Below, in pieces: positions 14,269 through 40,590 of a DNA stretch of 64,000 nt (positions are counted from its first letter, which is position 1; each line of letters starts with the position of its first letter). A program made the translations under genes and the position numbers. Origin of the DNA: Parcubacteria group bacterium. Its GTDB lineage: Bacteria; Patescibacteriota; Minisyncoccia; Moranbacterales; UBA11712. The notes beneath the pieces are model-generated. The model saw only the letters and a list, made by a program, of their open reading frames with translations. It did not search any database and was not told where the DNA came from. Where the stretch lies: NCBI GenBank assembly GCA_041659065.1, contig JBAZYY010000002.1:24091-88090 (forward strand). The letters run 5' to 3'.

Positions 14269-14382
14269 TTAACATTTCTGTATTTAACTGCTTGTATTTT
14301 ACCATATATTAAAAAAATGCACCAAATCTTATGAGGGCATCAAACGCATGCTGCTTCGCCATATATTGTTCCATGTTTTATG

Positions 14383-16107: not shown

Positions 16108-16189
16108 TCCCTGACAAGAGCCCGGCTCTCGTCAACGCACCCTCGGCCCTCGCCATTAACTTTGGTGGGGGCTGCTTTTTTATTAAAGC

Positions 16190-16300
16190 CCAAATTTCAA
16201 AGCTCAAATATCAAATAAAATCCAAAATCCCAATGTCAAATTTGGATTTTGATCTTTGGGCTTGGTTTGTCATTTGGATTTTGAAATTTGAATTTATAAT
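16190..16300. repeat. AT-rich palindromic intergenic element, family C (AAATCCAAAATCC / GGATTTTGGATTT arms)
   Basis: Shares segments (TTGGGCTTGGTTTGTCAT) in reverse orientation with the element at 18290-18440. Confidence 0.55.
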
Positions 16301-17064
16301 TTCGTGAGTATTTCGCATCCATCGCTCGTCACCACGACCGTATGTTCCCAGTGTCCGTTCAGTTTCCCATCGGCGGTTTTGTAAGTCCATCCATCGTCAG
16401 CAAGAACAATATCATATCCCCCTTCATTCACCATCGGCTCAAGCGCGAGCGTCATTCCCTCTTCAAGAATGATCTTCTTCATCCGCTTGTCGGCATAGTT
16501 AAAAACTTGCGGATCCTCATGAATGGAATGTCCGACTCCGTGCCCGACGAGATCTCTCACTACCGAAAAACCATTTTTCTCGGCGTGTTTTTGGACTGCT
16601 TTTCCATATTTAAAGAGCGTTTTTCCCGGCTTTATTTCAGCTATTCCGGCTCCAAGGCTCTCTTTCGTCACTCGCATCAATTTCTCGGCTGCTGGCGAAA
16701 TTTTTCCGACTCCCGCCATTACTGTCGCGTCGGTATGCATTTTTTTGTATTCAACCCCCAAGTCCAATTTCACGATATCCCCTTCGAAAAAAACTTTGTT
16801 TTCGACAGGCAGCCCATGCACAACTTCATTATTAATAGAAACGCAAACCGCCGCCGGATAGCCCTCGCCGTATCCACCCGGCTGATAATTCAGAAACGAA
16901 GGCTTGGAATCCATAGAAAAAACAAGCTCTCTTGCAAGCTTGTCAATCTCAATTGCTCTAACTCCGGGCAAAACACGCTCGGACAGTTTTTGAAGCACTT
17001 CAGCTAAAATCCGCCCGCTCCGGCGCATTATTTCAATTTCATCTTTTGACTTTATGGTAATCAT
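16294..17064 (-). CDS. map: Methionine aminopeptidase type I
   Basis: Metal-ligand pattern D…D…H…E…E in the pita-bread fold (VCVSINNEVVHG, DIVKLDLG, HGVGHSIHE, LALEPM). Confidence 0.9.
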   Translation of the reverse strand: MITIKSKDEIEIMRRSGRILAEVLQKLSERVLPGVRAIEIDKLARELVFSMDSKPSFLNYQPGGYGEGYPAAVCVSINNEVVHGLPVENKVFFEGDIVKLDLGVEYKKMHTDATVMAGVGKISPAAEKLMRVTKESLGAGIAEIKPGKTLFKYGKAVQKHAEKNGFSVVRDLVGHGVGHSIHEDPQVFNYADKRMKKIILEEGMTLALEPMVNEGGYDIVLADDGWTYKTADGKLNGHWEHTVVVTSDGCEILTKL

Positions 17065-18289: not shown

Positions 18290-18440
18290 TTATAATTATA
18301 CAGTTTTTATTTATAACTATATCTTTAAATCCAAATATCAAATCTCAAATGACAAACCAAGCTCAAAACTCAAAATGAAAAAATGAAATTGGGATTTTGG
18401 ATTTAATTTGAAATTTGGGCTTTGGATTTTGGATTTTCCG
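18290..18440. repeat. AT-rich palindromic intergenic element, family C
   Basis: CAAATATCAAATCTCAAATGACAAACCAAGCTCAAAA … TTTGGGCTTTGGATTTTGGATTTT. Confidence 0.55.
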
Positions 18441-19712: not shown

Positions 19713-19801
19713 AGTTTTAGACTTTTGAATTTTGAATTACGAATTTGGAGAAAGAATATGAAATCTTGAATTTCGAATTCATCATTCTAAATTCCAAATT
19801 C
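19713..19801. repeat. AT-rich palindromic intergenic element (GAATTTTGAATT type)
   Basis: TTTTGAATTTTGAATTACGAATTTGG … GAATTTCGAATTCATCATTCTAAATTCCAAATTC. Confidence 0.5.
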
Positions 19802-20740: not shown

Positions 20741-20868
20741 AGTAATAAATCAAAATTCAAAAATCAAAATGCAAAATTGAGATACTCGCTTCGCTTGTTC
20801 ATTATTTAGATATTTTATCTTTCGCGAAGCGACACAATAATTTTTAACTTTTCACTTTGAACTTTTAA
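20741..20868. repeat. Intercistronic palindromic element of the r-protein operon (family B, core CGCTTCGC…GCGAAGCG)
   Basis: A-rich left arm (AAAATCAAAATGCAAAATTG), core inverted repeat, T-rich right arm (TTTTCACTTTGAACTTTT). Confidence 0.6.
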
Positions 20869-21210
20869 TTAAAGGATAAGTCCGCCTTTCCGGGCGCCAT
20901 CTGCGAGCGCCTTGACCGCTCCATGATATTTTCTTCCGCGCCTATCGAAAACTACCTCTTTTATTCCTTTAGCCAAAGCTATTTTAGCGATTTCCTCTCC
21001 TAAAACCCCGGCTATGACTTGAGCACCCTCAGCTTTCTTAATCTTTCGGCTATCCAAGGAAAGTAAGGTTTTATTGCTCGCATCATCAATTATTTGGGCA
21101 TAAATAATCCTGAGGCTTTTTGTCACAGCCAATCTTGGGCGAACATCGGTTCCTGCGACCTTAGCCCTTACCCTTTTTATTCTTCTTTTCCTTAAAATAT
21201 TCTTATTCAT
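20869..21210 (-). CDS. rplR: 50S ribosomal protein L18
   Basis: L18 family features; operon position. Confidence 0.85.
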   Translation of the reverse strand: MNKNILRKRRIKRVRAKVAGTDVRPRLAVTKSLRIIYAQIIDDASNKTLLSLDSRKIKKAEGAQVIAGVLGEEIAKIALAKGIKEVVFDRRGRKYHGAVKALADGARKGGLIL

Positions 21211-21232
21211 AAAATCTCCCTTTTATTTACGC

Positions 21233-21781
21233 TTATTTATCTGCGCCAACTGCTTTCTTTCCCGCTTTTTTTCTAACTATTTCTCCTACATAGCGAAAGC
21301 CTTTGCCTTTATACGGTTCTACTTTTTTAAGGGCGCGCACAACCGCTGCGAATTGCCCGACCTTTTGCTTGTCTATTCCGGAGACAGTTAAAATATTTTT
21401 TTCTATAGCCGCTTCCAGACCTTCCGGGATATCCATTTTGACCGGGTGTGAAAATCCGAGCGCCAGATCTATCGTTTTTCCCTGAATTGCCATTCGATAT
21501 CCTACCCCCTGGAGTTCCAGTTTCTTCTCAAACCCTTGAGTGACGCCGGTAATCATATTTGCAATCAGCATTCTGGTAAGTCCCCACAAAGCTCTTGATT
21601 GCTTATCAGTCCTTTTGCCTATGTTGACTTTAATCTCCTTATCCTCCTGGCCTACTGATACTTCACGGCGTGCTTCAAAATCCAGCGATCCTTTCGGCCC
21701 TTTAACGGTTATTTTTTGTCCGGCGATGGAGATTTCCACACCATCCGGAACTGCGATTGGTTTTTTCCCGATTCTACTCAT
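21233..21781 (-). CDS. rplF: 50S ribosomal protein L6
   Basis: SRIGKKPI…VEI…KGPKG L6 start. Confidence 0.9.
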   Translation of the reverse strand: MSRIGKKPIAVPDGVEISIAGQKITVKGPKGSLDFEARREVSVGQEDKEIKVNIGKRTDKQSRALWGLTRMLIANMITGVTQGFEKKLELQGVGYRMAIQGKTIDLALGFSHPVKMDIPEGLEAAIEKNILTVSGIDKQKVGQFAAVVRALKKVEPYKGKGFRYVGEIVRKKAGKKAVGADK

Positions 21782-21785
21782 ACTA

Positions 21786-22190
21786 TTACCAAATTTGACA
21801 AATTAATTCACCGCCGAGTCCTGATTTTCTGGCTTCATCGTCCGTCATGAGCCCTTTCGAAGTCGAGATTATTGAAAATCCATACCCGCTTTTTACCCGA
21901 GGGATCTTGTTTTTTTTGACATAAATCCGCTGTCCTTCGCGGCTTACTCGCTGCAGATCGTTAATAAACGGATTAGCAGTTCCGTTCGCTGAACTTGAAA
22001 ATTTCAAGACAATCTTGATGTTCCTGCGCTCACTGGATTCGTCAGTAGAAATATTTTGGATAAAACCCCTATTTCTCAAGATTTCGCCGATTTGCATCTT
22101 TAATTTGGAATGCGGAATAAGCACCTCCGGGTGGCCTGCCCTTGAAGCGTTTCTAACTCTTGTCAACATGTCGCTAATTGGATCCAACAT
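21786..22190 (-). CDS. rpsH: 30S ribosomal protein S8
   Basis: DPISDMLTRVRNA S8 start. Confidence 0.9.
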   Translation of the reverse strand: MLDPISDMLTRVRNASRAGHPEVLIPHSKLKMQIGEILRNRGFIQNISTDESSERRNIKIVLKFSSSANGTANPFINDLQRVSREGQRIYVKKNKIPRVKSGYGFSIISTSKGLMTDDEARKSGLGGELICQIW

Positions 22191-22326
22191 ATCTATTGTA
22201 ATTGAAAAATGTAAAATGAAAATTGAAAAGTTTTGGTGTCACTTCGCGACTTTTTTAAAAAATAGTTACGAGCGAAGCGAGTTCCTTAATTTTTACTTTT
22301 TCATTTTTAACTTTTAATTTTTATGA
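22191..22326. repeat. Intercistronic palindromic element (family B)
   Basis: AAAATGTAAAATGAAAATTG…CACTTCGCGAC…GAGCGAAGCGAG…TTTTTCATTTTTAACTTTT. Confidence 0.6.
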
Positions 22327-22512
22327 TCACCAGCTTGATTTTCTAACCCCCGGGATCTCACCCTGGCTGGCAAGTTCCCTGAAGCAAATTCGGCAAAGCT
22401 TGAAATCTCTCATATACGACCTTTTTCTTCCGCAACGCCAACAACGCCGAACTATTCGGCTTGAAAACTTTGGTTTTTTTCTGGCTCTTGCCTCAACTGA
22501 AGTCTTTGCCAT
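22327..22512 (-). CDS. rpsN: 30S ribosomal protein S14, type Z (zinc-binding)
   Basis: 61 aa; CWRCGR…CRIC Cys4. Confidence 0.9.
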
Positions 22513-22593
22513 TTCTAAATATTATTATGACTTATGAGTTGCGGATTGATCGAACTTCTAAATTCCATTAATCCGCAGCCCCTACTCCATATC

Positions 22594-23148
22594 TTACTTT
22601 TCCGAAAGTGCGAGAGGAAATCCCAACAGTCTATAGAGTTCCGTTCCTTCTTCTTTGGTCTTTCCGCTGTTTACGATATTGATTTGCAGACTGAAAATAT
22701 TTTTTACGTTTTCCGGCACAATCTCGGGAAAAACCGTATGTTCCTTAACGACTACGCAGATATTACCTTGATTATCAAAGCACTTTTCATCAATTCCTCG
22801 GAAGTCTCTCACCCTAGGAAGGGCGGAAAAAACCAGTCTTTCCATAAATTGCCACATTCTGATTCCTCTCAAAGTTACTGCCACTCCGACCTCTTGTCCC
22901 TGCCTGATCTTAAAACCGGCAATTGATTTTTTGGCTTTTGTTTGAACCGGCTTCTGCCCGGAAATTGTTCTCAGGTTTTCAACTATTTCATCAACCGCTT
23001 CTTTTTCCTTTAGAAATTTCCCAACTCCAATATTTATCGAGATTTTCGATATCCTGGGAATTGCCATAACATTCTTATAGCCGAACTTTTCTTTCAGCTT
23101 TGGCAAGACCTCTTTATCGTATTTTTCCATTAATATGCTTTTTTTCAT
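22594..23148 (-). CDS. rplE: 50S ribosomal protein L5
   Basis: L5 family N-terminus and length. Confidence 0.9.
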   Translation of the reverse strand: MKKSILMEKYDKEVLPKLKEKFGYKNVMAIPRISKISINIGVGKFLKEKEAVDEIVENLRTISGQKPVQTKAKKSIAGFKIRQGQEVGVAVTLRGIRMWQFMERLVFSALPRVRDFRGIDEKCFDNQGNICVVVKEHTVFPEIVPENVKNIFSLQINIVNSGKTKEEGTELYRLLGFPLALSEK

Positions 23149-23498
23149 AATTCTTTATTGCATTTTTTGCAAACTCTATGCTTCTTTTCTCCAATTAATT
23201 TATATCTGGTCCTTGACGGCTTGGAACATTTGGGGCACACCAGCATCACGTTTGAAGCATCAACCGGCGCTGGAACTGAAACACGTTGCCCCTTTTCCCC
23301 TTGCCTTCTCGGCTTCACATGCTTTTTGACAAGGTTCAGCCCTTCGATAAGGACTTTCCCTTCTTTTGGAATAACGCGCAGGACTTTTCCAGTCTTTCCT
23401 CGATCCTTTCCGCTCAATATTTTTACATTGTCTCCCTTTATTATTTTCACAACTTTAAAATATTTTTTAATAACCTGATCCGCGAAGCGGAACGCCAA
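23145..23498 (-). CDS. rplX: 50S ribosomal protein L24 with C-terminal Cys4 zinc-ribbon tail
   Basis: KOW motif KILSGKDRGKTGKV; C-terminal CPKC…CKKC. Confidence 0.85.
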   Translation of the reverse strand: MAFRFADQVIKKYFKVVKIIKGDNVKILSGKDRGKTGKVLRVIPKEGKVLIEGLNLVKKHVKPRRQGEKGQRVSVPAPVDASNVMLVCPKCSKPSRTRYKLIGEKKHRVCKKCNKEL

Positions 23499-23536
23499 AA
23501 CTTTTCATTTTTCACTTTAAACTCTTAACTTCTTTT

Positions 23537-23902
23537 CTACCAGACCTCCGGTGCCAACGATACTATTTTCATATAACCCTTCTCACGAATTTCTCGCGCA
23601 ATCGGTCCGAATATACGCGTTCCTTTGGGGTCTTTCCCTTCCAGAATCACCGCTGCGTTTTCATCAAATTTAATATATGAACCATCTTTGCGCCTCAAGG
23701 CTTTCTTTTGCCTCACAATGACAGCTTTTACCACCGCTTTCTTCTTTACCATTCCTCTGGGCTCTGCTTCCTTAACAGAAGCTACCACTACATCGCCAAT
23801 CTTTGCGTATCTCCTGCGCGTGCCGCCCAGCACCTTGAAACATTCTATGATTTTGGCACCAGAGTTATCGGCTACTTTTAATTTAGTTTCAGCTTGGATC
23901 AT
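23537..23902 (-). CDS. rplN: 50S ribosomal protein L14
   Basis: [18 protein letters not shown]14 start. Confidence 0.9.
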
Positions 23903-24027
23903 GAAATCAACTCAAAACTCAAATGTAAAATGTCAAATCTTTGGTGTTCGCTTCGCTCATTTATTTTTTTAAAATTAATCGCGAAGCGATACCCTACTTT
24001 TGAGCTTTGACTTTTGAATTTTAATAT
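23903..24027. repeat. Intercistronic palindromic element (family B), near-identical to 24913-25038
   Basis: AAAACTCAAATGTAAAATGTCAAATC…TTCGCTTCGCTCAT…ATCGCGAAGCGATACC…TTTTGAGCTTTGACTTTTGAATTTT. Confidence 0.65.
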
Positions 24028-24285
24028 TTACTCGTATATTACTTTCCACTTCTTATCCTTACTAATCGGTTTCGTTTCGGTAATCGCCACTTTGTCTCCA
24101 ACTTTAAAGGTATTCTCCGGATCGTGCGCCTTATACCGTTTCGTTGAAATATATCTTTTCAGGTATTTTGGATGCACCTTCATCTCACTGACGTCAACCA
24201 CTACGGTCTTATCCATCTTGTCGCTCGACACGATACCCTCGATAAGCCTTTTCTTCTTTGAATTGTTTTCTTTAATCTGTTTCAT
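24028..24285 (-). CDS. rpsQ: 30S ribosomal protein S17
   Basis: S17 OB-fold signature; operon position. Confidence 0.9.
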   Translation of the reverse strand: MKQIKENNSKKKRLIEGIVSSDKMDKTVVVDVSEMKVHPKYLKRYISTKRYKAHDPENTFKVGDKVAITETKPISKDKKWKVIYE

Positions 24286-24293
24286 AATAAATA

Positions 24294-24494
24294 TTATTTA
24301 TCCGGATTTCTTTGCTTCTCTCCGAGTATCGTTAAAATTTGCGCTACTTCCTTTTTCATCTTTCTGATATCGCGATGATTTTTTACTTGTTTAGCGGAAA
24401 TATCAAACCTCATCTTGGTCAACTTATTTCGAAGATCCAATAAATCTTTTTTGAGCTCATTATCACCCTTTGTCTTCAGTTCTTTCGTCTTCAT
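24294..24494 (-). CDS. rpmC: 50S ribosomal protein L29
   Basis: 66-aa helical protein; operon position. Confidence 0.85.
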   Translation of the reverse strand: MKTKELKTKGDNELKKDLLDLRNKLTKMRFDISAKQVKNHRDIRKMKKEVAQILTILGEKQRNPDK

Positions 24495-24504
24495 AATGTT
24501 ATCC

Positions 24505-24912
24505 TTATCTTTCTTCTACTTTAGTCTTGACACTTAATTTAGCCGCGGCCAGTTTTAAGGCCTGGCGCGCAATAGTCGGCGTTACTCCATCCATTTCAAA
24601 CATAATCCTTCCCGGCTTCACAACTGCCACAAAATGATCGACCGATCCCTTGCCTTTACCCATAGGAGTTTCATCTCCCTTTTTCGTCATAGGTTTATCG
24701 GGAAAAATTCTTATCCATATCTTTCCGCCCCGCTGGACATACCGAGTAATCGCGCGGCGCGCAGCTTCAATTTGCCTTGCGGAAATGAGACCGCATTCCA
24801 TAGCCTTCAATCCAAAGCTTCCAAAACTCAACTCGCCTCCTCTTTTGGAATTGCCGGTCAGCTTTCCGCCCCGCTGGTGCTTTCTGAATTTTACCTTTTT
24901 TGGCATCAACAT
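24505..24912 (-). CDS. rplP: 50S ribosomal protein L16
   Basis: [11 protein letters not shown]…GG L16 start. Confidence 0.9.
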
Positions 24913-25038
24913 AAAATCAACTTAAAACTCAAATGTAAAATGTAAAATCTTTTGAGTTCGCTTCGCTCATAAAAAATTTATTAAATAAATCGCGAAGCGA
25001 TACCTTACTTTTGAGCTTTGACTTTTGAATTTTTACAT
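24913..25038. repeat. Intercistronic palindromic element (family B), ~90% identical to 23903-24027
   Basis: AAAACTCAAATGTAAAATGTAAAATC…TTCGCTTCGCTCAT…ATCGCGAAGCGATACC…TTTTGAGCTTTGACTTTTGAATTTTT. Confidence 0.65.
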
Positions 25039-25680
25039 TTATTCGAATCTGTCTCCCCGATATATCCAAACCTTAACTCCAATTACTCCATGAGTAGTTT
25101 TGGCAATAACTTTTGAAAAATCTATATCCGCCCTGAGAGTGTGGAGAGGCAGGGTTCCTTTCGAAACCCACTCTGTCCTCGACATATCCGCCCCGCCCAA
25201 TCGTCCGGAAATTTCTATCTTAATACCTTTTATTCTCTTGCCCTCCATTGCTTGGTCTGTTACGCCCTTGAGTATCCGCCTGAACGGAACTCTTTTTTCA
25301 AGCTGTTCCGCTACGCTTCGCCCGACAACTTCAGCATTTTCTTCCATATTTTTTATCTCTTCAACCTCTACTTTGAGATCTATTTTTCTGCTAGGAAGAA
25401 ATTTTTGCCTGATTTCCCTCTTTATATCTTCCGCGCCGGATCCGCCTCGGCCGATAATTACACCCGGTCGGGCTGATTTTATTATCACGCGTATTTTCCC
25501 GGCAGACCTTTCGATTTCAACCTCGCCGATAGCCGCATTCTTAAGCTTTTCTTTGATATATTTTCTTAAATTGACATCCTCTCTCAGCTGATTAGCATAT
25601 TCTTTCTTGCTAAACCAGCGGGATTTCCATCCCTTAATAACTGCTATTCTGAAAGCTTGTGGATTAACTTTTTGTCCCAT
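25039..25680 (-). CDS. rpsC: 30S ribosomal protein S3
   Basis: MGQKVNP start, KH domain. Confidence 0.9.
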   Translation of the reverse strand: MGQKVNPQAFRIAVIKGWKSRWFSKKEYANQLREDVNLRKYIKEKLKNAAIGEVEIERSAGKIRVIIKSARPGVIIGRGGSGAEDIKREIRQKFLPSRKIDLKVEVEEIKNMEENAEVVGRSVAEQLEKRVPFRRILKGVTDQAMEGKRIKGIKIEISGRLGGADMSRTEWVSKGTLPLHTLRADIDFSKVIAKTTHGVIGVKVWIYRGDRFE

Positions 25681-25752
25681 TTATTTCTCTGAGAATTATG
25701 AATCAATTAATAATATACCAATATCATACGGAATCCTTAGCTCACAAAGACT

Positions 25753-26349
25753 TTACATACTCTTCCTTCTGAATACCTTTTTCAGAAATCCCTTCTGTTC
25801 TCCGGCTTTTTTCTTTTCGTCTAAAAATTCTTTTTCTTCTCGCTCTTTAACAATCTCCCCGCCAGCAACGCTTCGCGTAGCGATGCGGGCAGGTTTTCTC
25901 TCTTCCTTTGCCGCTTCTTTTTCGCTTTCTTTCTTTGTCGATTCTATCTTAACTTTATCTTCCGCTTTAATTTCCTTAATCTCTTGCTTCTTTACTTGTT
26001 TTCTATCTTTTCCCTCAACTCTTTCCGCCAAAATCATTTCTACACGACTCGTCCTTTTGAGAAGAAGACTCGCTCTGCCGTAGGCTCGGGGGAGCCATCT
26101 TTTGAGTCGCGCTCCCTCGTTTACGATAACCTCTTTGACATACAGGTTATCCTTATTCAATCCGAAATTATTTTCCGCGTTGGCTACCGCGCTTTTTAGG
26201 AGTTTTTCAAAACTCGATGCGGACCCCTTGATCAAATATTTCAATTGATCTTCGGCTTTTTTCACATCCAATCCCTTTAACATATCGGCTACTAACCGAA
26301 CTTTACGCGGAGACTTCCTATAATTATTTAACTTTGCTGATACTTGCAT
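25753..26349 (-). CDS. rplV: 50S ribosomal protein L22 with ~85-aa Lys/Glu-rich C-terminal extension
   Basis: L22 core aa 1-110; tail KEERKPARIATRSVAGGEIVKEREEKE…. Confidence 0.85.
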   Translation of the reverse strand: MQVSAKLNNYRKSPRKVRLVADMLKGLDVKKAEDQLKYLIKGSASSFEKLLKSAVANAENNFGLNKDNLYVKEVIVNEGARLKRWLPRAYGRASLLLKRTSRVEMILAERVEGKDRKQVKKQEIKEIKAEDKVKIESTKKESEKEAAKEERKPARIATRSVAGGEIVKEREEKEFLDEKKKAGEQKGFLKKVFRRKSM

Positions 26350-26376
26350 AATAGTTGACCGTGAGTTTCGTGGATT

Positions 26377-26700
26377 TTACTTTTTTCCTTCCTTATTGAC
26401 AGCTGAATCTTTCTGTTTTGCCGAACTCTCAAGCTCTTTCTGCATCTTTCCGCCGTGTCGCGTAAACTTTCGAGTTGGAGAAAATTCGCCCAGTTTGTGT
26501 CCAATCATCTCTTCCGTAATAAACACCGGCGTGAATTCTCTGCCGTTGTGGACTCCAAAGGTAAAACCGACCATTTCCGGAACAATCGTAGACGGGCGTG
26601 ACCAAGTCTTAATGATAGCTTTATCACCAGGCTTCTTATCGCCAATCTTTTTTAATAATTTTTCATCCACGAATGGACCTTTCTTTAAACTTCTTGCCAT
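26377..26700 (-). CDS. rpsS: 30S ribosomal protein S19
   Basis: [12 protein letters not shown] start. Confidence 0.9.
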
Positions 26701-27536
26701 TATTTTTTTCGTTTGATAATAAACTTGCTGCTGTATTTATGCTTCTTTCTCGTTTTCTTTCCAAGAGCCGGCTTGCCCCACGGTGTTTTCGGATGTTTCA
26801 ATCCAATCCCTTGCTTTCCTTCCCCTCCGCCATGCGGGTGATCAACCGGATTCATTACGGTCCCTCTGACTGTAGGTCTAATACCCATCCAGCGCGAACG
26901 ACCAGCTTTACCAATAATGACTGTGTTATGCTGGGCATTCCCCACCTGACCAATCGTAGCAAAACAACTGCCACTTATCAACCGAATTTCGCCAGAGGCC
27001 AATTTTACCTGTGCTTTTCCTGCATCCACGGCCATAAGCGTAACTGACGAACCTGCGCTTCTTGCCAATTGCGCCCCTTTACTCGGGAACATTTCCACAA
27101 GGCAAATTTGGGTTCCCACCGGAATATTCTGAACTTCCATTCGGTTGCCTATTTTTATGGCTGCTTTGTGATCATTTAAAAACAGTGAGCCCGCCTTCAT
27201 GCCCTCAGACGCGATTATATACCTCTTTTCTCCATCCTTAAAATTGAGAAGGGCGATGTTGGCACTGCGATTCGGATCCCGCTCGACTCTTTCTATCGTC
27301 GCCGGAATTCCAAACTTATCCATCTTAAAATCGATTATTCGATATTTTTTCTTGTGGCCGCCGCCCTTGTGACGAACGGAAATTTTACCTTTCGACCGGC
27401 CCCCACGGCTTTTGAGGCTGCTAGTCAGGCTCCTTTCTGGTCCAGAAAAACTTTCTTCCAGTTTGTTCACTGACATTTGCCTTCTCCCAGGTGTAGTTTT
27501 TCTGTATACTTTTATCGGCATCTGAATTTCATTCAA
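26700..27536 (-). CDS. rplB: 50S ribosomal protein L2
   Basis: L2 C-terminal signature (…[29 protein letters not shown]…). Confidence 0.9.
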
Positions 27537-27575
27537 AAATCAAATTATTGACGCGCAAAATGTTTGCAATTTATG

Positions 27576-28040
27576 TTATACCCCTTCGGCTAAAGCAATT
27601 GTTTCTCCCTGAGCCAGCTTTACAACCGCTTTTTTATAACCCTTTTTCCATCCGACCGTCTTTCCCTGAACTCTTTTTTTCCGGTGAATCTTGATCGTGT
27701 TCACCTCCAAAACGTTTACTCCGTAGTATCCTTCAATTGCCTGCTTTATCTGATGCTTATTGGCGTCAGGCTTCACTTTAAACACATACATATTTAGCTG
27801 GCCAAGTCCCGTGGACTTTTCGGATATAATCGGCTCCAGCAGAAATTTATAGCCCAAGTTTCCTTCTTTCTTGGCAACCTTTTTTTTAGGCGCGGCTTTC
27901 TTTTCCGGACTTTTAGCAGTTTCCTTGGGCGCGACTTCCTTCTTCATCTTTGGAGCTATCTCCTTCTTCTTGACCTCCTTGGATTCAGGCGCCGCCGGCT
28001 GCTGTTCCTTTTTTCCTAAAAATTTATTTATTATACTCAT
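27576..28040 (-). CDS. rplW: 50S ribosomal protein L23 with ~60-aa Lys/Pro-rich N-terminal extension
   Basis: L23 core from YKFLLEPIISEKS; N-terminal KKEIAPKMKKEVAPKETAKSPEKKAAPKKK. Confidence 0.85.
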   Translation of the reverse strand: MSIINKFLGKKEQQPAAPESKEVKKKEIAPKMKKEVAPKETAKSPEKKAAPKKKVAKKEGNLGYKFLLEPIISEKSTGLGQLNMYVFKVKPDANKHQIKQAIEGYYGVNVLEVNTIKIHRKKRVQGKTVGWKKGYKKAVVKLAQGETIALAEGV

Positions 28041-28074
28041 CTTTTCAAAATTTCCTAACTATATTATTTCAAAA

Positions 28075-28743
28075 TTACTTTTCTCCAGCCTCTTCTGCGG
28101 GTTTTCCAAGCTTTTCACTCAATTTTTTTTCGATGACCTTTATGCCTTCTTCACTTGCGACCAAATATTTATGGTTCAATATTTCAAAAACATTCAAATT
28201 TTCAACATCCTGGGAGCTTACGTGGGGAATATTCCTACTTGCCCTGCGTGATTCCCTCTCATTCTTTGAAAAACCAAACAGGATTGTTCCCTTCAATTTG
28301 AGCATTTCAATAGCCTGCTGAATAGCTTTGGTTTTAACATCGCTTAGTTTGAGAGTATCGATTATAACCAATTCTTTGTCAGAAACCTTCCCACTAAGCG
28401 CCACAGCCAGAGCCTTCCTGCCCATCTTTTTTGGAACATCTTTTTTAAAATTTCTTTCTTTGGTTGGCCCGAAAACGATACCGCCCTTTCTCCAAATCGG
28501 AGTCCTGACGGATCCTACTCGCGCCCGGCCAGTTCCCTTTTGCCGCCATGGTTTTTTGCCAGAACCCGCCCGTTCCGCCCGATCCTTTGTGTGCGCCAAT
28601 ACCTGGCGCTGATTCGAGAATTGAGATACGTAAACCTGGTGCAAAAGAATATCGTTTCTCTCCAGACCAAAAACCGTTTCGGACAGATCCACATCCTTAA
28701 TTTTTTCTCCTTTTAAATTTTTTACTGGTAATTTCAACATCAC
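28075..28743 (-). CDS. rplD: 50S ribosomal protein L4
   Basis: L4 family; operon position. Confidence 0.9.
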   Translation of the reverse strand: MMLKLPVKNLKGEKIKDVDLSETVFGLERNDILLHQVYVSQFSNQRQVLAHTKDRAERAGSGKKPWRQKGTGRARVGSVRTPIWRKGGIVFGPTKERNFKKDVPKKMGRKALAVALSGKVSDKELVIIDTLKLSDVKTKAIQQAIEMLKLKGTILFGFSKNERESRRASRNIPHVSSQDVENLNVFEILNHKYLVASEEGIKVIEKKLSEKLGKPAEEAGEK

Positions 28744-28765
28744 TTATATTTCTAATTTTGTCCTT

Positions 28766-29356
28766 TTAGCGGCTGATCTCCACGATTCTTCCTCTTACTC
28801 CCGGCACCGCTCCCCTTAAAAATAAAATATTATTTTCTTTGTCTATTTCAACAATTACGAGATTTTTTACTGATGACCTTGTTCCGCCCATCCGACCCGC
28901 CATTCTCTTTCCTTTTATTACGTGCTCCGGATATGTCGCTCCGATAGAACCTGGCGCCCGAAGATCATGCTTGTGCCCATGAGTTTTTGGCGAACCCTTG
29001 AATCCGTGCCTTTTTACGACTCCCTGAAAACCTTTCGCCTTGGAAATTCCCGAAATTTTAATTTTTTCTCCAATCTCAAACTGGTTGATATCAACAATAT
29101 CTCCAACTTTCAAATCTTTCGTCTCTACTTTAAATTCCTTGATTCGCAAAAAATTTTTTCCTGGCTTTTCGCTTTTCGCTTTTCGCTTTGCGCTTTTTAG
29201 CCCGATTTGAATTGCCGCATACCCGTCCTGGTTGGTATTTCTGATTTGAGTAACCACGTTTGGCAAACATTCAACGAGAGTCACGTTTAAAGCGCCCTTT
29301 TCTTCGTCATATATAGTGCTCATTCCAAGCTTTTTTCCGAGAATAAACTTTGCCAT
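28766..29356 (-). CDS. rplC: 50S ribosomal protein L3
   Basis: MAKFILGKKLGMS start. Confidence 0.9.
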   Translation of the reverse strand: MAKFILGKKLGMSTIYDEEKGALNVTLVECLPNVVTQIRNTNQDGYAAIQIGLKSAKRKAKSEKPGKNFLRIKEFKVETKDLKVGDIVDINQFEIGEKIKISGISKAKGFQGVVKRHGFKGSPKTHGHKHDLRAPGSIGATYPEHVIKGKRMAGRMGGTRSSVKNLVIVEIDKENNILFLRGAVPGVRGRIVEISR

Positions 29357-29504
29357 ATCTATCTTTCAAATAAAAAACTGGACTAAATCCAGTCAAAACT
29401 ATCGCGATTTTAGTTTATGACTAGTTCAGTATCCGCCTAAATTTTCGGAGAAGACTTGGGCGGACTTAAATTAGTTATCAGTTATAATTTTTATTGGCTC
29501 CGAA

Positions 29505-29843
29505 TTACATTTTTATCTCCACATCCACGCCAGCCGGAAGGTCAAGATTCGTCAGATTATCTATCGTTTTTGGAGTGGGGCTAAAAATATCGATCAGGCG
29601 CTTATGAATCCTCATTTCGTATTGGTCACGGCTGTCTTTATGAACAAATGTTGATTTGTTTACCGTGTATTTACGGATTTGAGTCGGTAAAGGAACCGGC
29701 CCTGCGATTTCCGCACCCGTCCTCTCGGCTGTTTCAACTATCTGCCTGGCTGAGCGATCAATTACCTTGTGATCGTAAGCTTTGATTTTTATCCTGATTC
29801 TTTGCTTGGCCTCTGCTTCTGCCGGTTTCTTAGCTGATGACAT
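29505..29843 (-). CDS. rpsJ: 30S ribosomal protein S10
   Basis: [16 protein letters not shown]10 motif. Confidence 0.9.
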
Positions 29844-29972
29844 TTAGCTTTAAACTCCCCACGCCGATCCTAACCACTGATTCCTACCAAGCTTGAAAGT
29901 TCGGAACATCTTCTTCTCATCTTGGAAAGAATTGGCCAAGATTGGTGTGGGGAGTGAATATTAAATAACTAG

Positions 29973-31166
29973 TTATTTGATAATTTTTGTTACTACGCCT
30001 GCTCCAACGGTTTTCCCACCCTCTCGAATGGCAAATCTCATTCCCTCTTCCATAGCGACTGGAGCCACTAGTTTGACACCGAGATTGACGGTATCGCCTG
30101 GCATGACCATCTCAGTTCCCTCTGGAAGGGTGACCTCGCCCGTCACATCAGTAGTCCTGATATAAAATTGCGGCTTGTAACCCTTAAAGAATGGAGTGTG
30201 TCTTCCGCCCTCGTCTTTATTCAAGATATATACTTCACAGTCAAATTCGGTGTGAGGAGTAATAGAACCTGGTTTTGCCAAAACCTGTCCCCTTTCCACT
30301 TCTTCTTTTTTGGTTCCGCGCAGCAAGACTCCCGCGTTATCGCCAGCCTGTCCCTTATCAAGAGTTTTATTGAACATTTCGATCCCGGTAACGGTTGTTT
30401 TTGCAGTAGGCTTAATTCCCACTATTTCCACTTCTTCATTAACATTGATAATTCCCCTTTCAATTCTTCCGGTAACCACTGTACCGCGTCCTTCGATTGA
30501 GAAAATGTCTTCAATCGGCATCAAATACGGTTTATCGATATCCCGCACCGGATCAGGAATTTTTTCATCAAGAGCCGCAATAAGATCAAGAATCGGCTTG
30601 GCTGCCTCATCGTCTTTACTTTTTGATTCAAGCGCTTTAAGGGCTGAACCGCGAATAATAGAAGCATTGTCGCCATCGAACTCATATTTGGTTAATAGCT
30701 CTCTTACCTCAGCTTCAACCAGATCGATCAGTTCTGGATCATCAACCATGTCAACCTTATTGAGGAATACAACTACGGCCGGCACTCCCACCTGGCGAGC
30801 AAGCAAAATGTGCTCTCTGGTTTGAGGCATAGGACCGTCAGTGGCACTGACAACCAAAATTGCGCCATCCATTTGCGCGGCACCCGTAATCATGTTTTTG
30901 ATGTAGTCGGCATGCCCTGGGCAGTCGACGTGAGCGTAGTGCCGCTTTTCTGATTCATATTCACAATGAGCAGTAGCAATGGTAATTCCACGTTCTCTTT
31001 CCTCAGGAGCTTTATCGATTTCGTCAACGCCTTTTTCTTTGGCTTGACCAAGAAAGCTCAAGACATGCAAAATAGCGGCCGTAAGGGTTGTCTTGCCATG
31101 ATCAACATGTCCTATTGTACCAACATTTACGTGTGGTTTGGTTCTTTCAAATACTGCTGCTGCCAT
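29973..31166 (-). CDS. tuf: Elongation factor Tu
   Basis: [23 protein letters not shown]-motifs. Confidence 0.95.
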
Positions 31167-31234
31167 ATTTTTTTATCGCGAATTGACATAAATCCAATTC
31201 GAATCCATGCCGATTCGTTATTATTAACTATTTA

Positions 31235-31444
31235 TTAAGTTTTAGCATTAAAATGTCTGCCTGCCCGAAATGCTTTATCATTTAAGCAAATAACACATTT
31301 ACCATAATGCATAAAGCCTATATTTGCAATGCTTTTTGCTGCATCGCATTTAAAGCAGGCGGGTGAAATTATTCTAAACAATTTTTTAAAACTTGGCAAG
31401 TCCCTCCTACACATACTCCACATCTTCCAGCTTCTCAATTTCAT
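31235..31444 (-). CDS. Possible small zinc-ribbon protein (69 aa)
   Basis: CFKC…(17 aa)…CVIC; overlaps the 3' end of the upstream small ORF; coding status uncertain in an AT-rich region. Confidence 0.3.
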   Translation of the reverse strand: MKLRSWKMWSMCRRDLPSFKKLFRIISPACFKCDAAKSIANIGFMHYGKCVICLNDKAFRAGRHFNAKT

Positions 31445-31676
31445 CCGTCAGCAATTCTTTGGAATTATCAGTCTGATTTTCACGCCAAGCGGCAATATCA
31501 GAATTTATTCTATCAACTAATTCTTCCTCTGTCAAAGATTTGACATTTGGATAATTTTCAAGGCTTTTCTTGTATTCTTCCCAGCCCATAACAATGTAGC
31601 GAGGTTTATCCTTTTCAATAAAAATATATTTGCCACCCGCTTTTTCCATTAGCTCTTTCAGCTCCTGGGAGATCAT
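31407..31676 (-). CDS. Small protein with Phd/YefM-antitoxin-like N-terminal pattern
   Basis: ISQELKELMEKAGGKYIFIEKDKPRYIVMGWEEYKKSLEN mirrors the helix-strand-strand-EEY pattern of YefM; acidic C-terminus; sits between fusA and tuf. Confidence 0.4.
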   Translation of the reverse strand: MISQELKELMEKAGGKYIFIEKDKPRYIVMGWEEYKKSLENYPNVKSLTEEELVDRINSDIAAWRENQTDNSKELLTDEIEKLEDVEYV

Positions 31677-31717
31677 AAGATTAAAATTCGATTTATAATT
31701 TAGGCCCGAATCGCTAA

Positions 31718-33805
31718 TTATTTCCTTTCTCCTGATTTTATTTCTTCAGCAACATTTCTCGGAACTTCTTCGTAGTGATCAAATTCCATACTATAGCTGG
31801 CTCTGCCTTGCGACATCGAACGCAGTTGCGTCGCATACCCAAACATCGAAGCAAGCGGAACAAGAGTTTTTATTTCCTTGACCCTCGCGTTTCCTTCTCC
31901 ACGATCCTCAATTTCCTGAATTTGACCGCGTTTTGAATTGATATCGCCTACTACATCTCCCATAAATTGTTCCGGAGTTGTAATGTCAACTTTCATAATT
32001 GGCTCCAAAAGTATCGGATTTGCCCTCTTTACGGCTTCCTGCACCGCCAAAGATCCGGCGATTTTAAATGCCGCTTCCGAGGAATCAACATCATGAAATG
32101 ATCCGTCGTAAACTATCGCTTTTACGTCAACCATCGGGTAACCCGCGATTACTCCGTTATCCAAAGCTTCTTTAACACCTTTTTGAATCGGTGGAATATA
32201 TTCTTGCGGAATAATTCCCCCTTTGATTTCGTTCGCGAATTCGAATCCTTTTCCAGCTTCAAGCGGCTCAACCCTGATCCAACAGTGCCCGTACTGGCCG
32301 CGTCCTCCGGATTGGCGGATATATTTTCCTTCGGCTTCCGCAGTCTTCTTGATTGTTTCCCGGTAAGCAACTTGGGGACGGCCCACATTGGCTTCAACCT
32401 TAAATTCCCTCTTCATTCTGTCAACAATAATATCGAGATGGAGCTCTCCCATTCCTTCAATAATTGTCTGGCCGGAATCCTCGTCCGTGTGAACCCGAAA
32501 AGTCGGATCTTCTTCACTAAGTTTTTTGAGGGCAATTCCCATTTTTTCTTGATCCGCCTTTGTTTTCGGTTCAATCGCAATCGAAATGACCGGTTCCGGA
32601 AAGGTTATCGATTCAAGTAAAACCGGACTGCTAGGATCACAAAGAGTATCGCCGGTTGTTGTGTATTTCATGCCCACTAACGCCCCGATTCCACCTGAGT
32701 ATATTTCCTCTATTTCCTCGCGATGATTCGCGTGCATGCGCAAAATTCGACCGATTCTTTCTTTTTCTTCCTTGGAAGCATTGAGTGCGTAAGAACCGGC
32801 TTTGACCGTTCCCGTGTATACCCTGAAAAATGTCAGCTGGCCGACAAATGGGTCTGTAGCTACCTTGAATGCCAAAGCGGCAAAGGGCGCCGAATCATCC
32901 GGCTTTATTTCCAATTCTTCGTTATTTTTCGGATTGATTGCCTTGACCGGAGGTACATCAGCAGGCGACGGCAGATAATCAACAACTGCGTCAAGAACAG
33001 GCTGAACCCCTTTGTTCCTTAAAGCCGTCCCGCAAAAAACCGGGAATAATCTCACTTCAATGGTCGCTTTTCTTAAGGCGGATTTTAGCTCCTCAACGGA
33101 TATTTCTTCTCCGCCCAAAAATTTTTCCGTAAGCGTATCATCCGTTTCGGCTATTTTTTCAATCATCTTCTCGCGCCATTCCTTCGCCTGATCCGCAAGT
33201 TCGGCCGGCACGTCCTTCTCAACGACTTTTTCCCCTTTATCACCCTCGAAATAAACCGCTTTCATTTTCATTAAGTCGACCACCCCCGAAAAATCTCCTC
33301 TTTGGCCAATTGGAATTTGAACCGCGATTGCATTCGGATTAAGCCGGTTAATGATACTGGAAAGGGAATAAAAAAAATCCGCGCCTTCCTTGTCTACTTT
33401 GTTGATAAAGCACAGTCGCGGGACATTATACTTATCCGCCTGTCTCCAGACCGTTTCAGATTGGGGCTCTACCCCTTCTTTTCCATCAAAGACAACCACG
33501 CCACCGTCAAGAACCCGGAGACTTCTTTCGACTTCGACCGTAAAATCAACATGACCGGGAGTGTCAATTATGTTTATTTGGCAATCCTGCCAATAGCAAG
33601 TCGTGGCAGCACTGGTGATTGTGATACCTCTTTCTTTTTCCTGCTCCATCCAGTCCATGGTTGCCTCACCTTCATGAACCTCTCCGATCTTATGAGAAAT
33701 TCCAGTGTAAAACAAAACACGCTCGGTAGTCGTGGTTTTACCGGCGTCGATGTGGGCAATGATGCCTATGTTTCTGTATTTTTCTATGGGATACTTTCTT
33801 GCCAT
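31718..33805 (-). CDS. fusA: Elongation factor G
   Basis: [21 protein letters not shown]; 695 aa. Confidence 0.95.
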
Positions 33806-33812
33806 ACTTTTT

Positions 33813-34280
33813 CTATGCGAAATGTGCGAACGCCTTATTGGCCTCCGCCATGCGATGGGTGTCTTCCCTTTTCTTCATGGCCGTGCCGCCTTTTTCTGCA
33901 GCTTCGATTAACTCTTGTGCCAGTTTTTCAGCCATTTTACTGCCTTTTTTGGCCCGGATAGCATCTCTTATCCAACGCATCGCCAGAGTCACTCTCCGAT
34001 CTCCTAAAACCTGAACCGGCACTTGATAGTTAGCTCCCCCGATACGCCGAGATTTGAGCTCGACTAGGGGTGAAACATTTTTGATTGCCTGTTCAAATAC
34101 GTTAAGGCCTCCTTTTTTAGTCTTTTCATGAATTATGTCAAAAGAATCGTAGATTACTTTTTGAGCGGTACTACGCTTTCCTCTTTCCATTAGCTGGCCA
34201 ATAAACCTTCCTACAGTCATGCTGTTGAACTTGGGATCTGGCCGCCATGATTTTCGATATACTCTTTTTCTTCGTGGCAC
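33813..34280 (-). CDS. rpsG: 30S ribosomal protein S7
   Basis: MPRRKRV…PDPKF S7 start. Confidence 0.9.
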
Positions 34281-34427
34281 GTTCGTTTCACTCGACTTAA
34301 AAATTAAAAGTGAAAAGTTTAAAATTAAGGTGCTCGCTACGCTCGAATATTATTATTTATAAAGTAACTATCGCGAAGCGACACCAAAATTTTTAATTTT
34401 TCATTTTTGACTTCTAACTTTCGAAAC
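34281..34427. repeat. Intercistronic palindromic element (family B)
   Basis: AAAATTAAAAGTGAAAAGTTTAAAATTAAGG…CGCTACGCTCG…ATCGCGAAGCGACACC…TTTTCATTTTTGACTTCTAACTTTCG. Confidence 0.6.
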
Positions 34428-34844
34428 CTAAGCCTGCTTAGGTTTCTTCGATCCATATTTCGATCGACCTCGTTTGCGATCATTAACGCCGGCGGAATCC
34501 AAAACACCCCTCACTACGTGATAACGGACACCCGGAAGATCCGGAACCCGTCCTCCGCGAATCATAACGATTGAGTGCTCTTGAAGATTATGCCCAATAC
34601 CCGGAATATAAGCCGTCACTTCCATGCCGTTAGTAAGACGAACTCTAGCGATTTTTCGAAGGGCGGAATTAGGCTTCTTTGGAGTGGTGGTGGAAACCTT
34701 CACGCAAACGCCACGTTTAAACGGACTATCGGTATTAATCGGCTTATTTTTGAGTGTATTAAAAATCCTCGTCATTGCTGGCGATTTAGGCTTTCTTTTT
34801 TGGACCTTGCGCGGCCGTTTTTTGAGCTGATTGATAGTTGGCAT
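34428..34844 (-). CDS. rpsL: 30S ribosomal protein S12
   Basis: MPTINQL…[11 protein letters not shown]12 signature. Confidence 0.95.
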
Positions 34845-35069
34845 GAGCGCTTCGCTGAATGCAAAATTTAAAATGCAAAACTTAAAATTTCGGTGTTCGC
34901 TTTGCTCACATATTCTGTTTTAATGCAAATAAAACTGCTAGTGAGCTAGCACCCGTAATATTAGATAAATATTAATAAAATGTCAACCCTCCTTTCGGGA
35001 TAGCTTATATTTTTAATTTCTCGATGTCGCAATGCTTGAAAATTGTGAATTGAAAATCAAAAATTTCCA

Positions 35070-35759: not shown

Positions 35760-35934
35760 ATTATTGAGAAACAGTAAATTGATTTTTCCTTATTTAATAC
35801 GGATCTTGCCAGTATTTCTTTTTTATGTTAACTTGAACCAGTTAATTAAGCAACCTTTTCATGTAACACAAAACATGAAACATGAAACATGAGTTTATTC
35901 GACCTCGTGTTACGTGTTACATGTTACATGCCCT

Positions 35935-36108
35935 ATGTCACGAGTCTGCCAAATTTGCGGCCGCGGACCAAAATCCTCCCAAAGCCGCTCCCACTCCAAT
36001 ATCGCCACCAAAAGAACGATGGCCATCAATCTTCAAACCAAAAAAACCGGCGGAAAGAATCTGAAGATCTGTACCAAGTGCCTCAAGACCGCCGCCAAAG
36101 AAAAATAG
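35935..36108 (+). CDS. rpmB: 50S ribosomal protein L28
   Basis: MSRVCQICGRGPKS…RSHSNIATKRT…NLQ matches the L28 consensus; 57 aa (the track ORF starts 7 codons earlier). Confidence 0.8.
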   Translation: MSRVCQICGRGPKSSQSRSHSNIATKRTMAINLQTKKTGGKNLKICTKCLKTAAKEK

Positions 36109-40339: not shown

Positions 40340-40499
40340 TAATTTATTTGATTATAGCATAATTTTGATATTGCGACAAAATACCTTCTTATCCACAGGC
40401 AGTATTCATGCCGCATATAAAACGGTTTGAATAAAATGCACAGCTATTTCAAAAAGTAGAAAAATAAGATACAATGTTAATGATAATTTTCGATGTCCA

Positions 40500-40590
40500 A
40501 TTCACAATTTTCAATCAATGATCAATTTTTAAAATTTTTAAACATTGAAAATTTATTGTAAATTGAAAATTAGTAATTGAAAATTTGAGA
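40500..40590. repeat. AT-rich palindromic intergenic element (family D, CAATTTTCAAT / ATTGAAAATTG)
   Basis: Same heptamer arms as 5040-5180. Confidence 0.55.

Follow-up and report, generated by a model that had tools for sequence, protein, structure and literature searches.

Ribosomal protein operons and their intercistronic repeats

We analysed a 64-kb stretch of contig JBAZYY010000002.1 (forward-strand positions 24,091 to 88,090; hereafter the window) from the Parcubacteria group bacterium assembly GCA_041659065.1, in which many spacers between ribosomal protein (r-protein) genes are filled by members of a family of hairpin-forming repeats; all counts given for this genome cover this window only. 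The nearest species representatives belong to Candidatus Moranbacteria, with 63-68% identity in ribosomal protein L5. The window has a GC content of ~42% and a negative GC skew throughout, and the minus strand carries nearly all of its genes. The str, S10, and spc operons occupy 19.8-34.9 kb in the usual gene order, and the names that a sequence-only reading of this DNA had given to the genes flanking the repeats (rpsE, rplR, rpsH, rpsN, rplX, rplN, rpsQ, rplP, rpsC, rpsL, rpsG, thyA, and a dihydrofolate reductase (DHFR)-like gene, all on the minus strand) were confirmed; the rpsN gene beside the repeats is of type Z. Considering that genomes of the Candidate Phyla Radiation (CPR, or Patescibacteria) are small and tightly packed, abundant repeats of 90-175 nt within essential and highly expressed r-protein operons are unexpected.

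Five full and three half copies of the repeat were found, located in spacers of the str, S10, and spc operons and in the thyA/DHFR-like spacer (Table 1). Seven junctions had been reported to carry spacers of 70-150 bp; the spacers measured here are 71-147 nt long (rplR-rpsE 128, rpsN-rpsH 136, rplN-rplX 86, rpsQ-rplN 125, rpsC-rplP 126, rpsL-rpsG 147, and thyA-folA 71 nt), with a further piece of the repeat in the rpsL leader; the half copy previously placed between folA and thyA is also present. Full copies occupy the entire spacer from stop codon to start codon. Read in the mRNA sense, each opens 0-10 nt past the stop codon with A-rich heptads, 4-6 in number and degenerate (AAAAGTN, AAAATGN, CAAAGNN), followed by GG(T/A)T-TCGCTTCGCGA, an AT-rich loop of ~25-30 nt, and GAGCGAAGCGA-ACACC, and closes with 4-6 U-rich heptads that end 0-12 nt ahead of the start codon. 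The 5' core TCGCTTCGCGA is itself a mini-palindrome (TCGC-TTC-GCGA, 4-5 bp), represents the best-conserved part of the element, and is retained in the 5' half copies; it pairs with its near-inverse GAGCGAAGCGA, 22-30 nt away, as a helix of 8-9 bp. The earlier description of two arms around an inverted core thus needs amendment in two respects: arms and inverted core are there, but the exact 8-mer core occurs in only three of the five full copies, and the arm units are degenerate rather than built from one heptamer. The exact core CGCTTCGC-N-GCGAAGCG was detected three times (0 expected), GCGAAGCG alone 14 times (2.7 expected), and the other two full copies have one-base core variants (GCGAAGTG and GCGTAGCG).

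A covariance model built from the copies recovered the five full ones at 117-132 bits on the mRNA strand and 77-103 bits on the other strand, matched the three partial ones weakly (E 0.04-0.12), and revealed no additional copy in a search of the whole window. The closest pair, 23903-24027 and 24913-25038, is 87.5% identical over 136 nt, with sub-blocks of 89-92% (~90% in the sequence-only reading). All ten copies known to us (eight in the window and two at locus L001 of a second Moranbacteria genome) are in mRNA sense (p 0.002), although transcription and replication direction are inseparable as determinants of this orientation because the genes are nearly all co-oriented. The family is present at 7 of 30 r-protein junctions versus 1 of 55 elsewhere (Fisher p 0.0024), and seven of the eight window copies lie within 15 kb. 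It is extremely improbable that the copies are assembly artefacts: the assembly record Logan SRR18595301, produced separately although shared reads with the window source are not established, agrees at 100% identity along 6,414 nt in which four copies lie, and related genomes from other studies carry both the family and its design. When the whole window was searched against Rfam, only a tRNA reached the gathering score, and the region 19500-35300 gave three chance-level matches at E<=1. The elements lengthen spacers and can mislead gene callers, as spurious open reading frames (ORFs) run through them (such as 16095-16307 and 24014-24367); ORFs over the elements, considered as possible small peptides, are not kept in position between genomes.

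Periodicity, folding, and strand symmetry

Autocorrelation at a lag of 7 nt is 0.46-0.54 in the r-protein repeat family compared with 0.25 in coding DNA. In each heptad a 5-nt core is conserved, while two positions are free and non-complementary between the arms. Neighbouring heptads within arms are identical and the arms are unequal, which gives the 23903-24027 copy a bulge of 14 nt. The arms have a complementarity of 0.5-0.7 in the best register and 0.4-0.65 at shifts of 7 or 14 nt; this small drop implies that the arms are inverted motif arrays and not a unique inverted duplication.

The predicted hairpins have imperfect stems of 35-52 pairs with dG of -21.6 to -36.7 kcal/mol and leave 0-15 unpaired nt at either end of the spacer. 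RNA folding, proposed earlier as a check, showed them to be more stable than dinucleotide shuffles (z -2.5 to -6.3). However, the best structure makes up <3% of the ensemble, indicating that many registers compete. Sense folding was better than antisense folding in only 15 of 35 elements (mean difference +0.8 kcal/mol, Wilcoxon p 0.52), and there is no G-U signature of selection at the RNA level. The consensus fold retains only the 8-bp core, with 0 compensatory changes and core mismatches in several copies. Terminator-like matches were at chance level (21 vs 17 expected), with only a weak 5-bp mini-hairpin flagged, and the elements depart from the layout of an intrinsic terminator in that the core stem encloses a loop of 22-30 nt and the U-rich arm begins ~9 nt past the stem; ordinary terminators with a GC-rich stem and a U run exist elsewhere in this genome. 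Equal folding of the two strands, the lack of compensatory changes, and the chance level of terminator matches together leave RNase III processing or attenuation, both suggested by the sequence-only reading, without specific support.

A Shine-Dalgarno sequence split and joined by the hairpin was considered and rejected, as none was seen upstream of the hairpins, and the gene strand of the elements has no good match to a sigma-70 promoter. In most window genes, including most r-protein genes, a Shine-Dalgarno sequence is unrecognisable within 20 nt of the start codon; a few genes have one, such as rplR (AAGGGAG) and rpmC; it is mostly absent from genes with and without a preceding element.

A clade-wide class of heptad hairpins

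Beyond what had been noticed before, the r-protein repeats belong to a clade-wide class of hairpins whose arms have a 7-nt period. We detected 35 lag-7 periodic segments in the window (5.5 per 10 kb, vs <=1.2 per 10 kb at other lags from 4 to 12), which form ~15 paired hairpins and 5 single arms at ~20 loci; lag-7 autocorrelation across these and other spacers is 0.46-0.62. The hairpins comprise at least four families with the same design and different units (Table 1), which together occupy about a quarter of the intergenic junctions in the window and in related genomes, and the sister families cluster by region as well. A degenerate hairpin at 7340..7510 may be a decayed relative of the r-protein repeat family. 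In other Moranbacteria, loci L001, L002, L004, and L008 have 4.7-11.2 lag-7 segments per 10 kb, and L007 has hairpins of a CGAAT type at ~14 junctions of r-protein operons. No lag-7 segments were found in the examined loci of Magasanikbacteria, Gracilibacteria, and a Spirochaete.

Short inverted GAATT-type heptad arrays that could form hairpins were also observed in IMG/VR viral contigs of 55-60% GC (L186:~4405-4500(-), L211:~12600-12720(-), L213:~1600-1700(-), and L218:4420-4540(+)), implying that the design is not confined to Moranbacteria; their frequency cannot be judged, as a scan of viral contigs for four GAATTNN units gave at least 120 matches and so did a permuted heptad and a 6-nt period. 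The core pattern had 13 matches in viral contigs, all high-GC and attributable to chance, and a shared 20-mer had 9 candidate matches there. In the window, a single heptad arm at 60518-60564 (GAAAAGTGCAAAGTTCAAAGCTCAAAATG when read as mRNA) is found where a metallo-beta-lactamase-fold gene meets a PGA_cap gene and overlaps the longest-ORF start of the latter, suggesting that this start has been called too far upstream. Another heptad array (13364-13407) lies at the start of a gene for a 23S rRNA intervening-sequence protein (12999-13388, minus strand; PF05635, with a weak bAvd-like match), which is free-standing between galT and a glycosyltransferase gene.

Distribution and conservation in relatives

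The r-protein repeat family is also present at two sites of L001, including non-orthologous junctions, and over 30-37 nt the arms of the window rpsN-rpsH copy share 95-97% of positions with the copy at rpsQ-rplN in L001. No copy of the CGCTTCGC family was detected in 58 kb of extra loci from the genome of L001 and from relatives, nor in seven other Moranbacteria loci. A metagenome scan with ribosomal protein S3 yielded relatives of at most 59% identity among the matches listed and no close orthologous DNA. Two closer relatives were compared by spacer size alone, not at the sequence level: one with a 71% identical L5 has spacers of 38, 19, 45, and 60 nt at rpsQ-rplN, rplN-rplX, rplR-rpsE, and secY-adk (125, 86, 128, and 175 nt in the window), and one with an 86% identical L5 has 48 nt at secY-adk. 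Thus, the comparison with relatives called for by the sequence-only reading reveals, as judged from these sizes, presence and absence at orthologous junctions.

Orthologous junctions may also hold different families in different genomes: the rplO-secY spacer has GAATT units in the window and TTTTCAA units in L008, and the junction beside a 2Fe-2S gene has TTGAAAA in the window and GAATT in L550. At rpsC-rplP, rpsQ-rplN, rpsN-rpsH, and rplO-secY, hairpins occur in several Moranbacteria even where the sequence family differs. Window elements match L001, L002, and L008, whereas 11 control intergenic regions gave zero cross-genome matches. Some orthologous copies are 80-90% identical despite near-saturated synonymous sites. 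The 16182..16307 element is 90% identical to its L008 ortholog over 120 nt, with flanking genes at 65-73%, and the rpsQ-rplN copy is 80% identical to its L001 ortholog, with third codon positions of the flanking genes at 39-55%. This conservation is one of sequence and not of structure alone, and it makes the family unusually well conserved relative to known self-spreading palindromic repeats. The consensus should therefore be held by something that is itself conserved, either a copying machinery (as in REPIN-RAYT systems) or a host function.

RAYT-like genes and their palindromes

A Y1 (IS200-like) transposase gene resembling RAYTs, the tyrosine transposases associated with repetitive extragenic palindromic (REP) sequences, lies at 5743-6408 on the minus strand (PF01797, E 7.5e-8). 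Its only NCBIfam match is to the REP-associated tyrosine transposase family (E 7e-9, below the cut-off), it has >2,000 homologues, and the window proteins that were scanned include no other transposase. Perfect palindromes, CCTAAAGTnnGACTTTAGG (CCTAAAG..CTTTAGG type), lie on both sides of the gene, and the window has 6 of them (0.01 expected); a second palindrome type, CCTACCAACATTCAATGTTGGTAGG, occurs nearby at ~6560-6590. A syntenic ortholog in the genome of L001 is 90% identical, exceeding several ribosomal proteins, and that genome has at least two further RAYT paralogs. Moranbacteria have several RAYT paralogs per genome (at least three in RIFOXYB1_FULL_43_19), often beside a PilX_N-like gene. 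We examined four RAYT-like genes at five loci (the window copy with its ortholog, and three paralogs), and each paralog has its own flanking palindrome, CTCCCAACATCGGATGTTGGGAG, CTACCAACATTCAATGTTGGTAG, or TTTAGACGTCCGACGTCTAAA (types CCAACAT..ATGTTGG and TTAGACG..CGTCTAA). Judging from these genes and palindromes, the lineage possesses classical REP/RAYT systems; as the RAYT flanks are palindromes other than the r-protein repeat, membership of the latter in the REPINs is not established.

Table 1. Repeat copies, related heptad hairpins, RAYT-associated palindromes, and the str promoter (window positions unless a locus is named)
Feature	Position	Strand	Details
Full copy, rplR-rpsE spacer	20741..20868	-	A-rich heptads, core CGCTTCGC...GCGAAGCG (+ strand 20787-20831), U-rich heptads; dG -27.9, z -2.5; 126.5 bits on minus strand
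Full copy, rpsN-rpsH spacer	22191..22326	-	3' core degenerate (GCGAAGTG); z -2.6; 116.9 bits
Half copy, rplN-rplX spacer	23451..23536	-	5' half in mRNA sense: A-rich heptads and mini-palindrome CCGCTTCGCGG; family D1, 62%; E 0.12
Full copy, rpsQ-rplN spacer	23903..24027	-	Core on + strand 23949-23988; dG -34.4, z -6.3; 130.5 bits; ortholog L001:9192-9302
Full copy, rpsC-rplP spacer	24913..25038	-	Core on + strand 24959-24999; z -3.2; 123.6 bits
Full copy, rpsL-rpsG spacer	34281..34427	-	3' core mismatch (GCGTAGCG); dG -36.7, z -4.3; 131.8 bits
3' half copy, rpsL 5' leader	34845..34944	-	GAGCAAAGCGAACACC and U-rich heptads; ends at ATG, downstream of promoter; family D2; covariance match 34856-34944, E 0.043
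5' half copy, thyA/DHFR-like spacer	56187..56257	-	A-rich heptads, GTGTCGCTTCGCGA, U run; family D1, 72%; E 0.078
GAATTNN/NNAATTC arms, upstream of aldolase gene	10388..10524	-	Sister family
GAATTNN arms	11780..11914	-	5-bp helices split by 2x2 internal loops; lag-7 0.60; z -3.2; 89% over 38 nt to L001:12774-12811
GAATTNN arms	14142..14277	-	Families D10, D11, D15
GAATTNN arms, rplO-secY spacer	19713..19801	-	lag-7 0.62; z -3.4
CCAAATN arms, downstream of map, convergent junction	16182..16307	-	90% over 120 nt to L008 ortholog
CCAAATN arms, secY-adk spacer (175 nt)	18300..18440	-	Sister family
TTGAAAA/TTTTCAA arms, divergent junction	5016..5179	.	Family D20; 92% over 40 nt to L008
TTGAAAA/TTTTCAA arms, divergent junction	40480..40589	.	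Family D20; 92% over 51 nt to L008
Degenerate heptad hairpin	7340..7510	-	Core-like GTATCGCGAAT; lag-7 0.54
Heptad hairpin, CATGAAA/TGTTACA arms	35854..35946	.	Periodicity and register analyses
CCTAAAGTnnGACTTTAGG palindromes	5717-5735, 6190-6208, 6425-6443, 6502-6520; doublet 41102-41143		One within the RAYT coding sequence; doublet between two + strand genes
Palindromes of RAYT paralogs/ortholog	L546:3988-4010, 4702-4724; L548:4676-4700; L549:2265-2285, 2936-2958; L550:3885-3910, 4672-4694		
str operon promoter, sigma-70-type consensus TTGACA-17-TAATAT	34958..34986	-	10/12 matches; context, outside repeat

Comparison with known repeat systems

By analogy, the element would work most like a REPIN or a transcribed MITE (miniature inverted-repeat transposable element) of the Correia/ERIC type, but it stands apart from all compared systems in that register-free heptad arms are combined with a doublet core rich in GC, in the coexistence of several families, and in its CPR host; our literature searches did not turn up a report of such elements from CPR bacteria. 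Correia/NEMIS elements of Neisseria and the ERIC/IRU elements of enterobacteria are imperfect palindromes of ~100-150 bp that are found in operons and co-transcribed as hairpins, some of which are cut by RNase III or alter mRNA stability. Their terminal inverted repeats are defined, and a TA target duplication accompanies Correia elements; neither defined ends nor a duplication was seen here, and the arms are periodic and register-free. Integron attC sites (Vibrio cholerae repeats) are likewise imperfect palindromes (~60-140 bp), placed between co-oriented genes in one orientation and acting as folded single strands. However, the flanks here are core r-protein genes in standard order and not cassettes, and no R''/R' (GTTRRRY) sites or integrase were seen.

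Heptanucleotide units are known from the STRR repeats of cyanobacteria, which are dispersed tandem repeats, and from TAACTGA heptamers. The latter occur in Beggiatoaceae, Cyanobacteria, and Bacteroidetes immediately upstream of starts that lack a Shine-Dalgarno sequence, also in r-protein operons; S1 or Csp proteins have been proposed as their binders, CspB binding one heptamer per protein, and specific heptamers are shared between genomes without a known spreading mechanism, with one inverted case reported (PMC4679880). Our elements resemble both in the 7-nt unit, the intergenic arrays that often end a few nucleotides before a start lacking a Shine-Dalgarno sequence, and the presence in r-protein operons. 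Those repeats, however, are direct arrays of one identical heptamer, whereas here the units are degenerate, the arrays short (4-6 units) and arranged as inverted pairs, a GC-rich core is present in one family, and there are several families.

REPINs are inverted REP doublets that form hairpins in single-stranded DNA or mRNA (PMC3116915), and their families are extragenic, with singlets as decay products and long vertical persistence (PMC3116915). The repeat described here shares with them two inverted short mini-palindromic motifs separated by a spacer, a hairpin of ~100 nt, frequent location within operons, the occurrence of half copies, and the presence of RAYT-like genes, which are syntenic in this lineage. 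It differs in its core palindrome of 4-5 bp with a 3-nt loop, in its long degenerate heptad arms, which have no REPIN counterpart, and in the strict orientation of its copies. TIGR arrays, which consist of 36-nt units with two alternating repeats of 8-12 nt and 9-nt spacers beside a Nop-domain gene (PMC12045711), were considered and rejected, as the period here is 7 nt and not 36 and no Nop-domain protein was found among the window proteins scanned.

Spreading repeat or selected element

Our leading reading, which we hold at about an even level of confidence, is that these spacers are copies of a long-lived, locally spreading, non-coding hairpin repeat, REPIN- or MITE-like, with heptad slippage in its arms, that is tolerated when co-transcribed. 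New copies would arise by copy-paste or gene conversion, chiefly in spacers close by, with single-stranded hairpins as the probable intermediates, which would account for the strict orientation. The arms would lengthen and shorten by slippage of 7-nt units, which would explain the unequal heptad numbers and the absent unique register, and the family consensus would be kept constant over the long term by a trans-acting machinery recognising core and heptads. Copies inside operons would be co-transcribed, and the transcribed RNA is expected to form a long AU-rich hairpin with imperfect pairing that would bring the upstream stop and the downstream start within ~0-15 unpaired nt on each side; insertion would be tolerable since most genes lack a Shine-Dalgarno sequence. 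Gain and loss at orthologous junctions, family turnover, clustering, half copies, and symmetry at the level of motifs fit such a spreading and decaying repeat population. In addition, this family and its sister families cluster by region, which favours local spread over a role specific to ribosomes, and identical adjacent heptads together with unequal arms fit slippage.

Several observations weigh against this reading. The sequence-only reading had proposed a proliferating MITE-like element, of which the dispersed repeat family is borne out by the non-orthologous junctions in the window and in L001, the half copies, and the short spacers of relatives, but the hallmarks of a MITE are not: no target-site duplications were seen in the flanks of the five full copies, which were read by eye without a formal scan; the ends are not unique terminal inverted repeats but heptad arrays whose pairing hardly suffers from a shift of 7 or 14 nt; and no transposase appears linked, as none of the RAYT-like genes at five loci is flanked by the CGCTTCGC core or heptad arrays. 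Mobility of the repeat is something that we infer. Identity of copies far above that of neutral sites would suit a selfish repeat no better than a host function under purifying selection, a binding partner and not slippage could be the reason why unrelated heptads all keep a 7-nt period, and the copy number is known from 64 kb of this genome only.

Purifying selection on some copies, as their identity between genomes suggests, may leave room for a functional role. The hairpins might be selected intercistronic RNA elements that serve for processing by RNase III or other means, that stop 3'-5' exonucleases and so set how stable the segments of an operon are relative to one another, or that couple translation by bringing stop and start together, an alternative that we regard as tentative and somewhat unlikely. 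It would agree with hairpins that span the whole spacer up to 0-15 unpaired nt at the ends, with the mRNA sense of all copies, with the folding z-scores (-2.5 to -6.3), and with orthologous copies conserved well above neutral sites; hairpins recurring across families at rpsC-rplP, rpsQ-rplN, rpsN-rpsH, and rplO-secY in Moranbacteria, and long spacers in highly expressed operons of small genomes, where they are unexpected, point the same way. Yet selection on an RNA fold is less easily reconciled with sense folding that beats antisense in just 15 of 35 elements (p 0.52), a core without compensatory pairs and with several mismatches, arms without a fixed register whose best structure accounts for <3% of the ensemble, and conservation of the sequence itself and not of structure alone. 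Relatives also lack elements at the same junctions, half copies are unable to form the hairpin, and the genome uses ordinary GC-stem and U-run terminators elsewhere.

If the heptads and not the fold are what is selected, the arrays could be binding sites, one unit per heptad, for an OB-fold single-strand binder (cold-shock-domain or S1-like) or for a DNA-binding protein that controls translation or junction structure, with the hairpin as a by-product of arrays that lie in both orientations. A 7-nt period that is constant across unrelated units and clade-specific, a conserved 5-nt core per heptad beside two free, non-complementary positions, and U-rich heptads that reach the start codon of genes without a Shine-Dalgarno sequence are all in line with this, and the TAACTGA precedent with its proposed S1/Csp binders (PMC4679880) keeps the idea alive. 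We nevertheless consider it quite unlikely, given at least 4-5 different heptad motifs in one small genome, A-rich arms after stop codons without an obvious role, and the absence of any cold-shock, S1-like, or other candidate from the window proteins that were scanned. Heptanucleotides are, according to MacGregor 2015 (citing Mrazek 2007, PMC4679880), the most abundant long simple-repeat class in most genomes surveyed, for which polymerase slippage has been proposed. Simple-sequence repeats that neither spread nor have a function, and that replication slippage created independently in each spacer, would also produce adjacent identical heptads and unequal arms; such an origin is very unlikely, as it is contradicted by a GC-rich core and arm sequences common to many loci and two genomes, by cross-genome matches that the elements have and the 11 control intergenic regions lack, and by an inverted-array design that recurs at ~15 loci.

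Other features of the window

Several further features were observed in the r-protein region. Its best sigma-70 match lies between fusA and tuf (31235-31717; site at 31535-31507, minus strand; TTGACA-17-TAGAAT with TG) and falls within two short overlapping ORFs (69 and 89 aa) without a family match. The tuf-rpsJ spacer (29844-29972) contains the motif AATATTCACyCCCACACCAAT and, after it, a strong hairpin rich in GC (dG -48); the motif is kept in L001, L003, and L005 (93-96% over ~30 nt) and has no Rfam match, and motif and hairpin are a possible S10-operon promoter or leader. The rpsJ-rplC spacer (29357-29504) has a hairpin (ACTAGTTnAAGTCC...GGATACTnAACTAG) and then a second hairpin with a U run, both kept in L001 and L003-L007, which are a possible r-protein leader or attenuator outside Rfam coverage.

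Elsewhere, nine consecutive ORFs of 139-436 aa at 36410-43353 have no Pfam match and are followed by a gene for an ECF-type sigma factor (43362-43946). Two of these ORFs, 36934-37428 and 38352-38975, have a common 97-nt segment with 73% identity and are probably paralogs. Just downstream of the DHFR-like gene and a canonical thyA, a minus-strand gene (54257-55681) encodes a 474-aa protein with MtrA-like, thymidylate-synthase-like, and pterin-binding (DUF4346) domains.

Implications

A more far-reaching proposal, which we consider unlikely at present, is that the inverted heptad arrays represent a Moranbacteria-specific 7-nt code under purifying selection. They would serve as tracks for a single-strand-binding protein, with an OB-fold or cold-shock domain on each heptad, or for a processing enzyme that opens or cuts the hairpin, and would thereby set the translation or stability of individual cistrons in mRNAs mostly devoid of Shine-Dalgarno sequences, with the different families as regulatory classes and not selfish repeats. 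Should the arrays be under selection, they would be a sign of a so far unknown level of post-transcriptional control in this lineage, which makes little use of Shine-Dalgarno sequences, and would matter for the question of why distant bacteria repeatedly have heptamer repeats close to start codons. If, on the other hand, they are long-lived intragenomic replicators, the REPIN type of lifestyle would extend to CPR bacteria in a new design with slipping heptad arms and coexisting families, and the repeats could serve as markers for strain-level population genetics in metagenomes.

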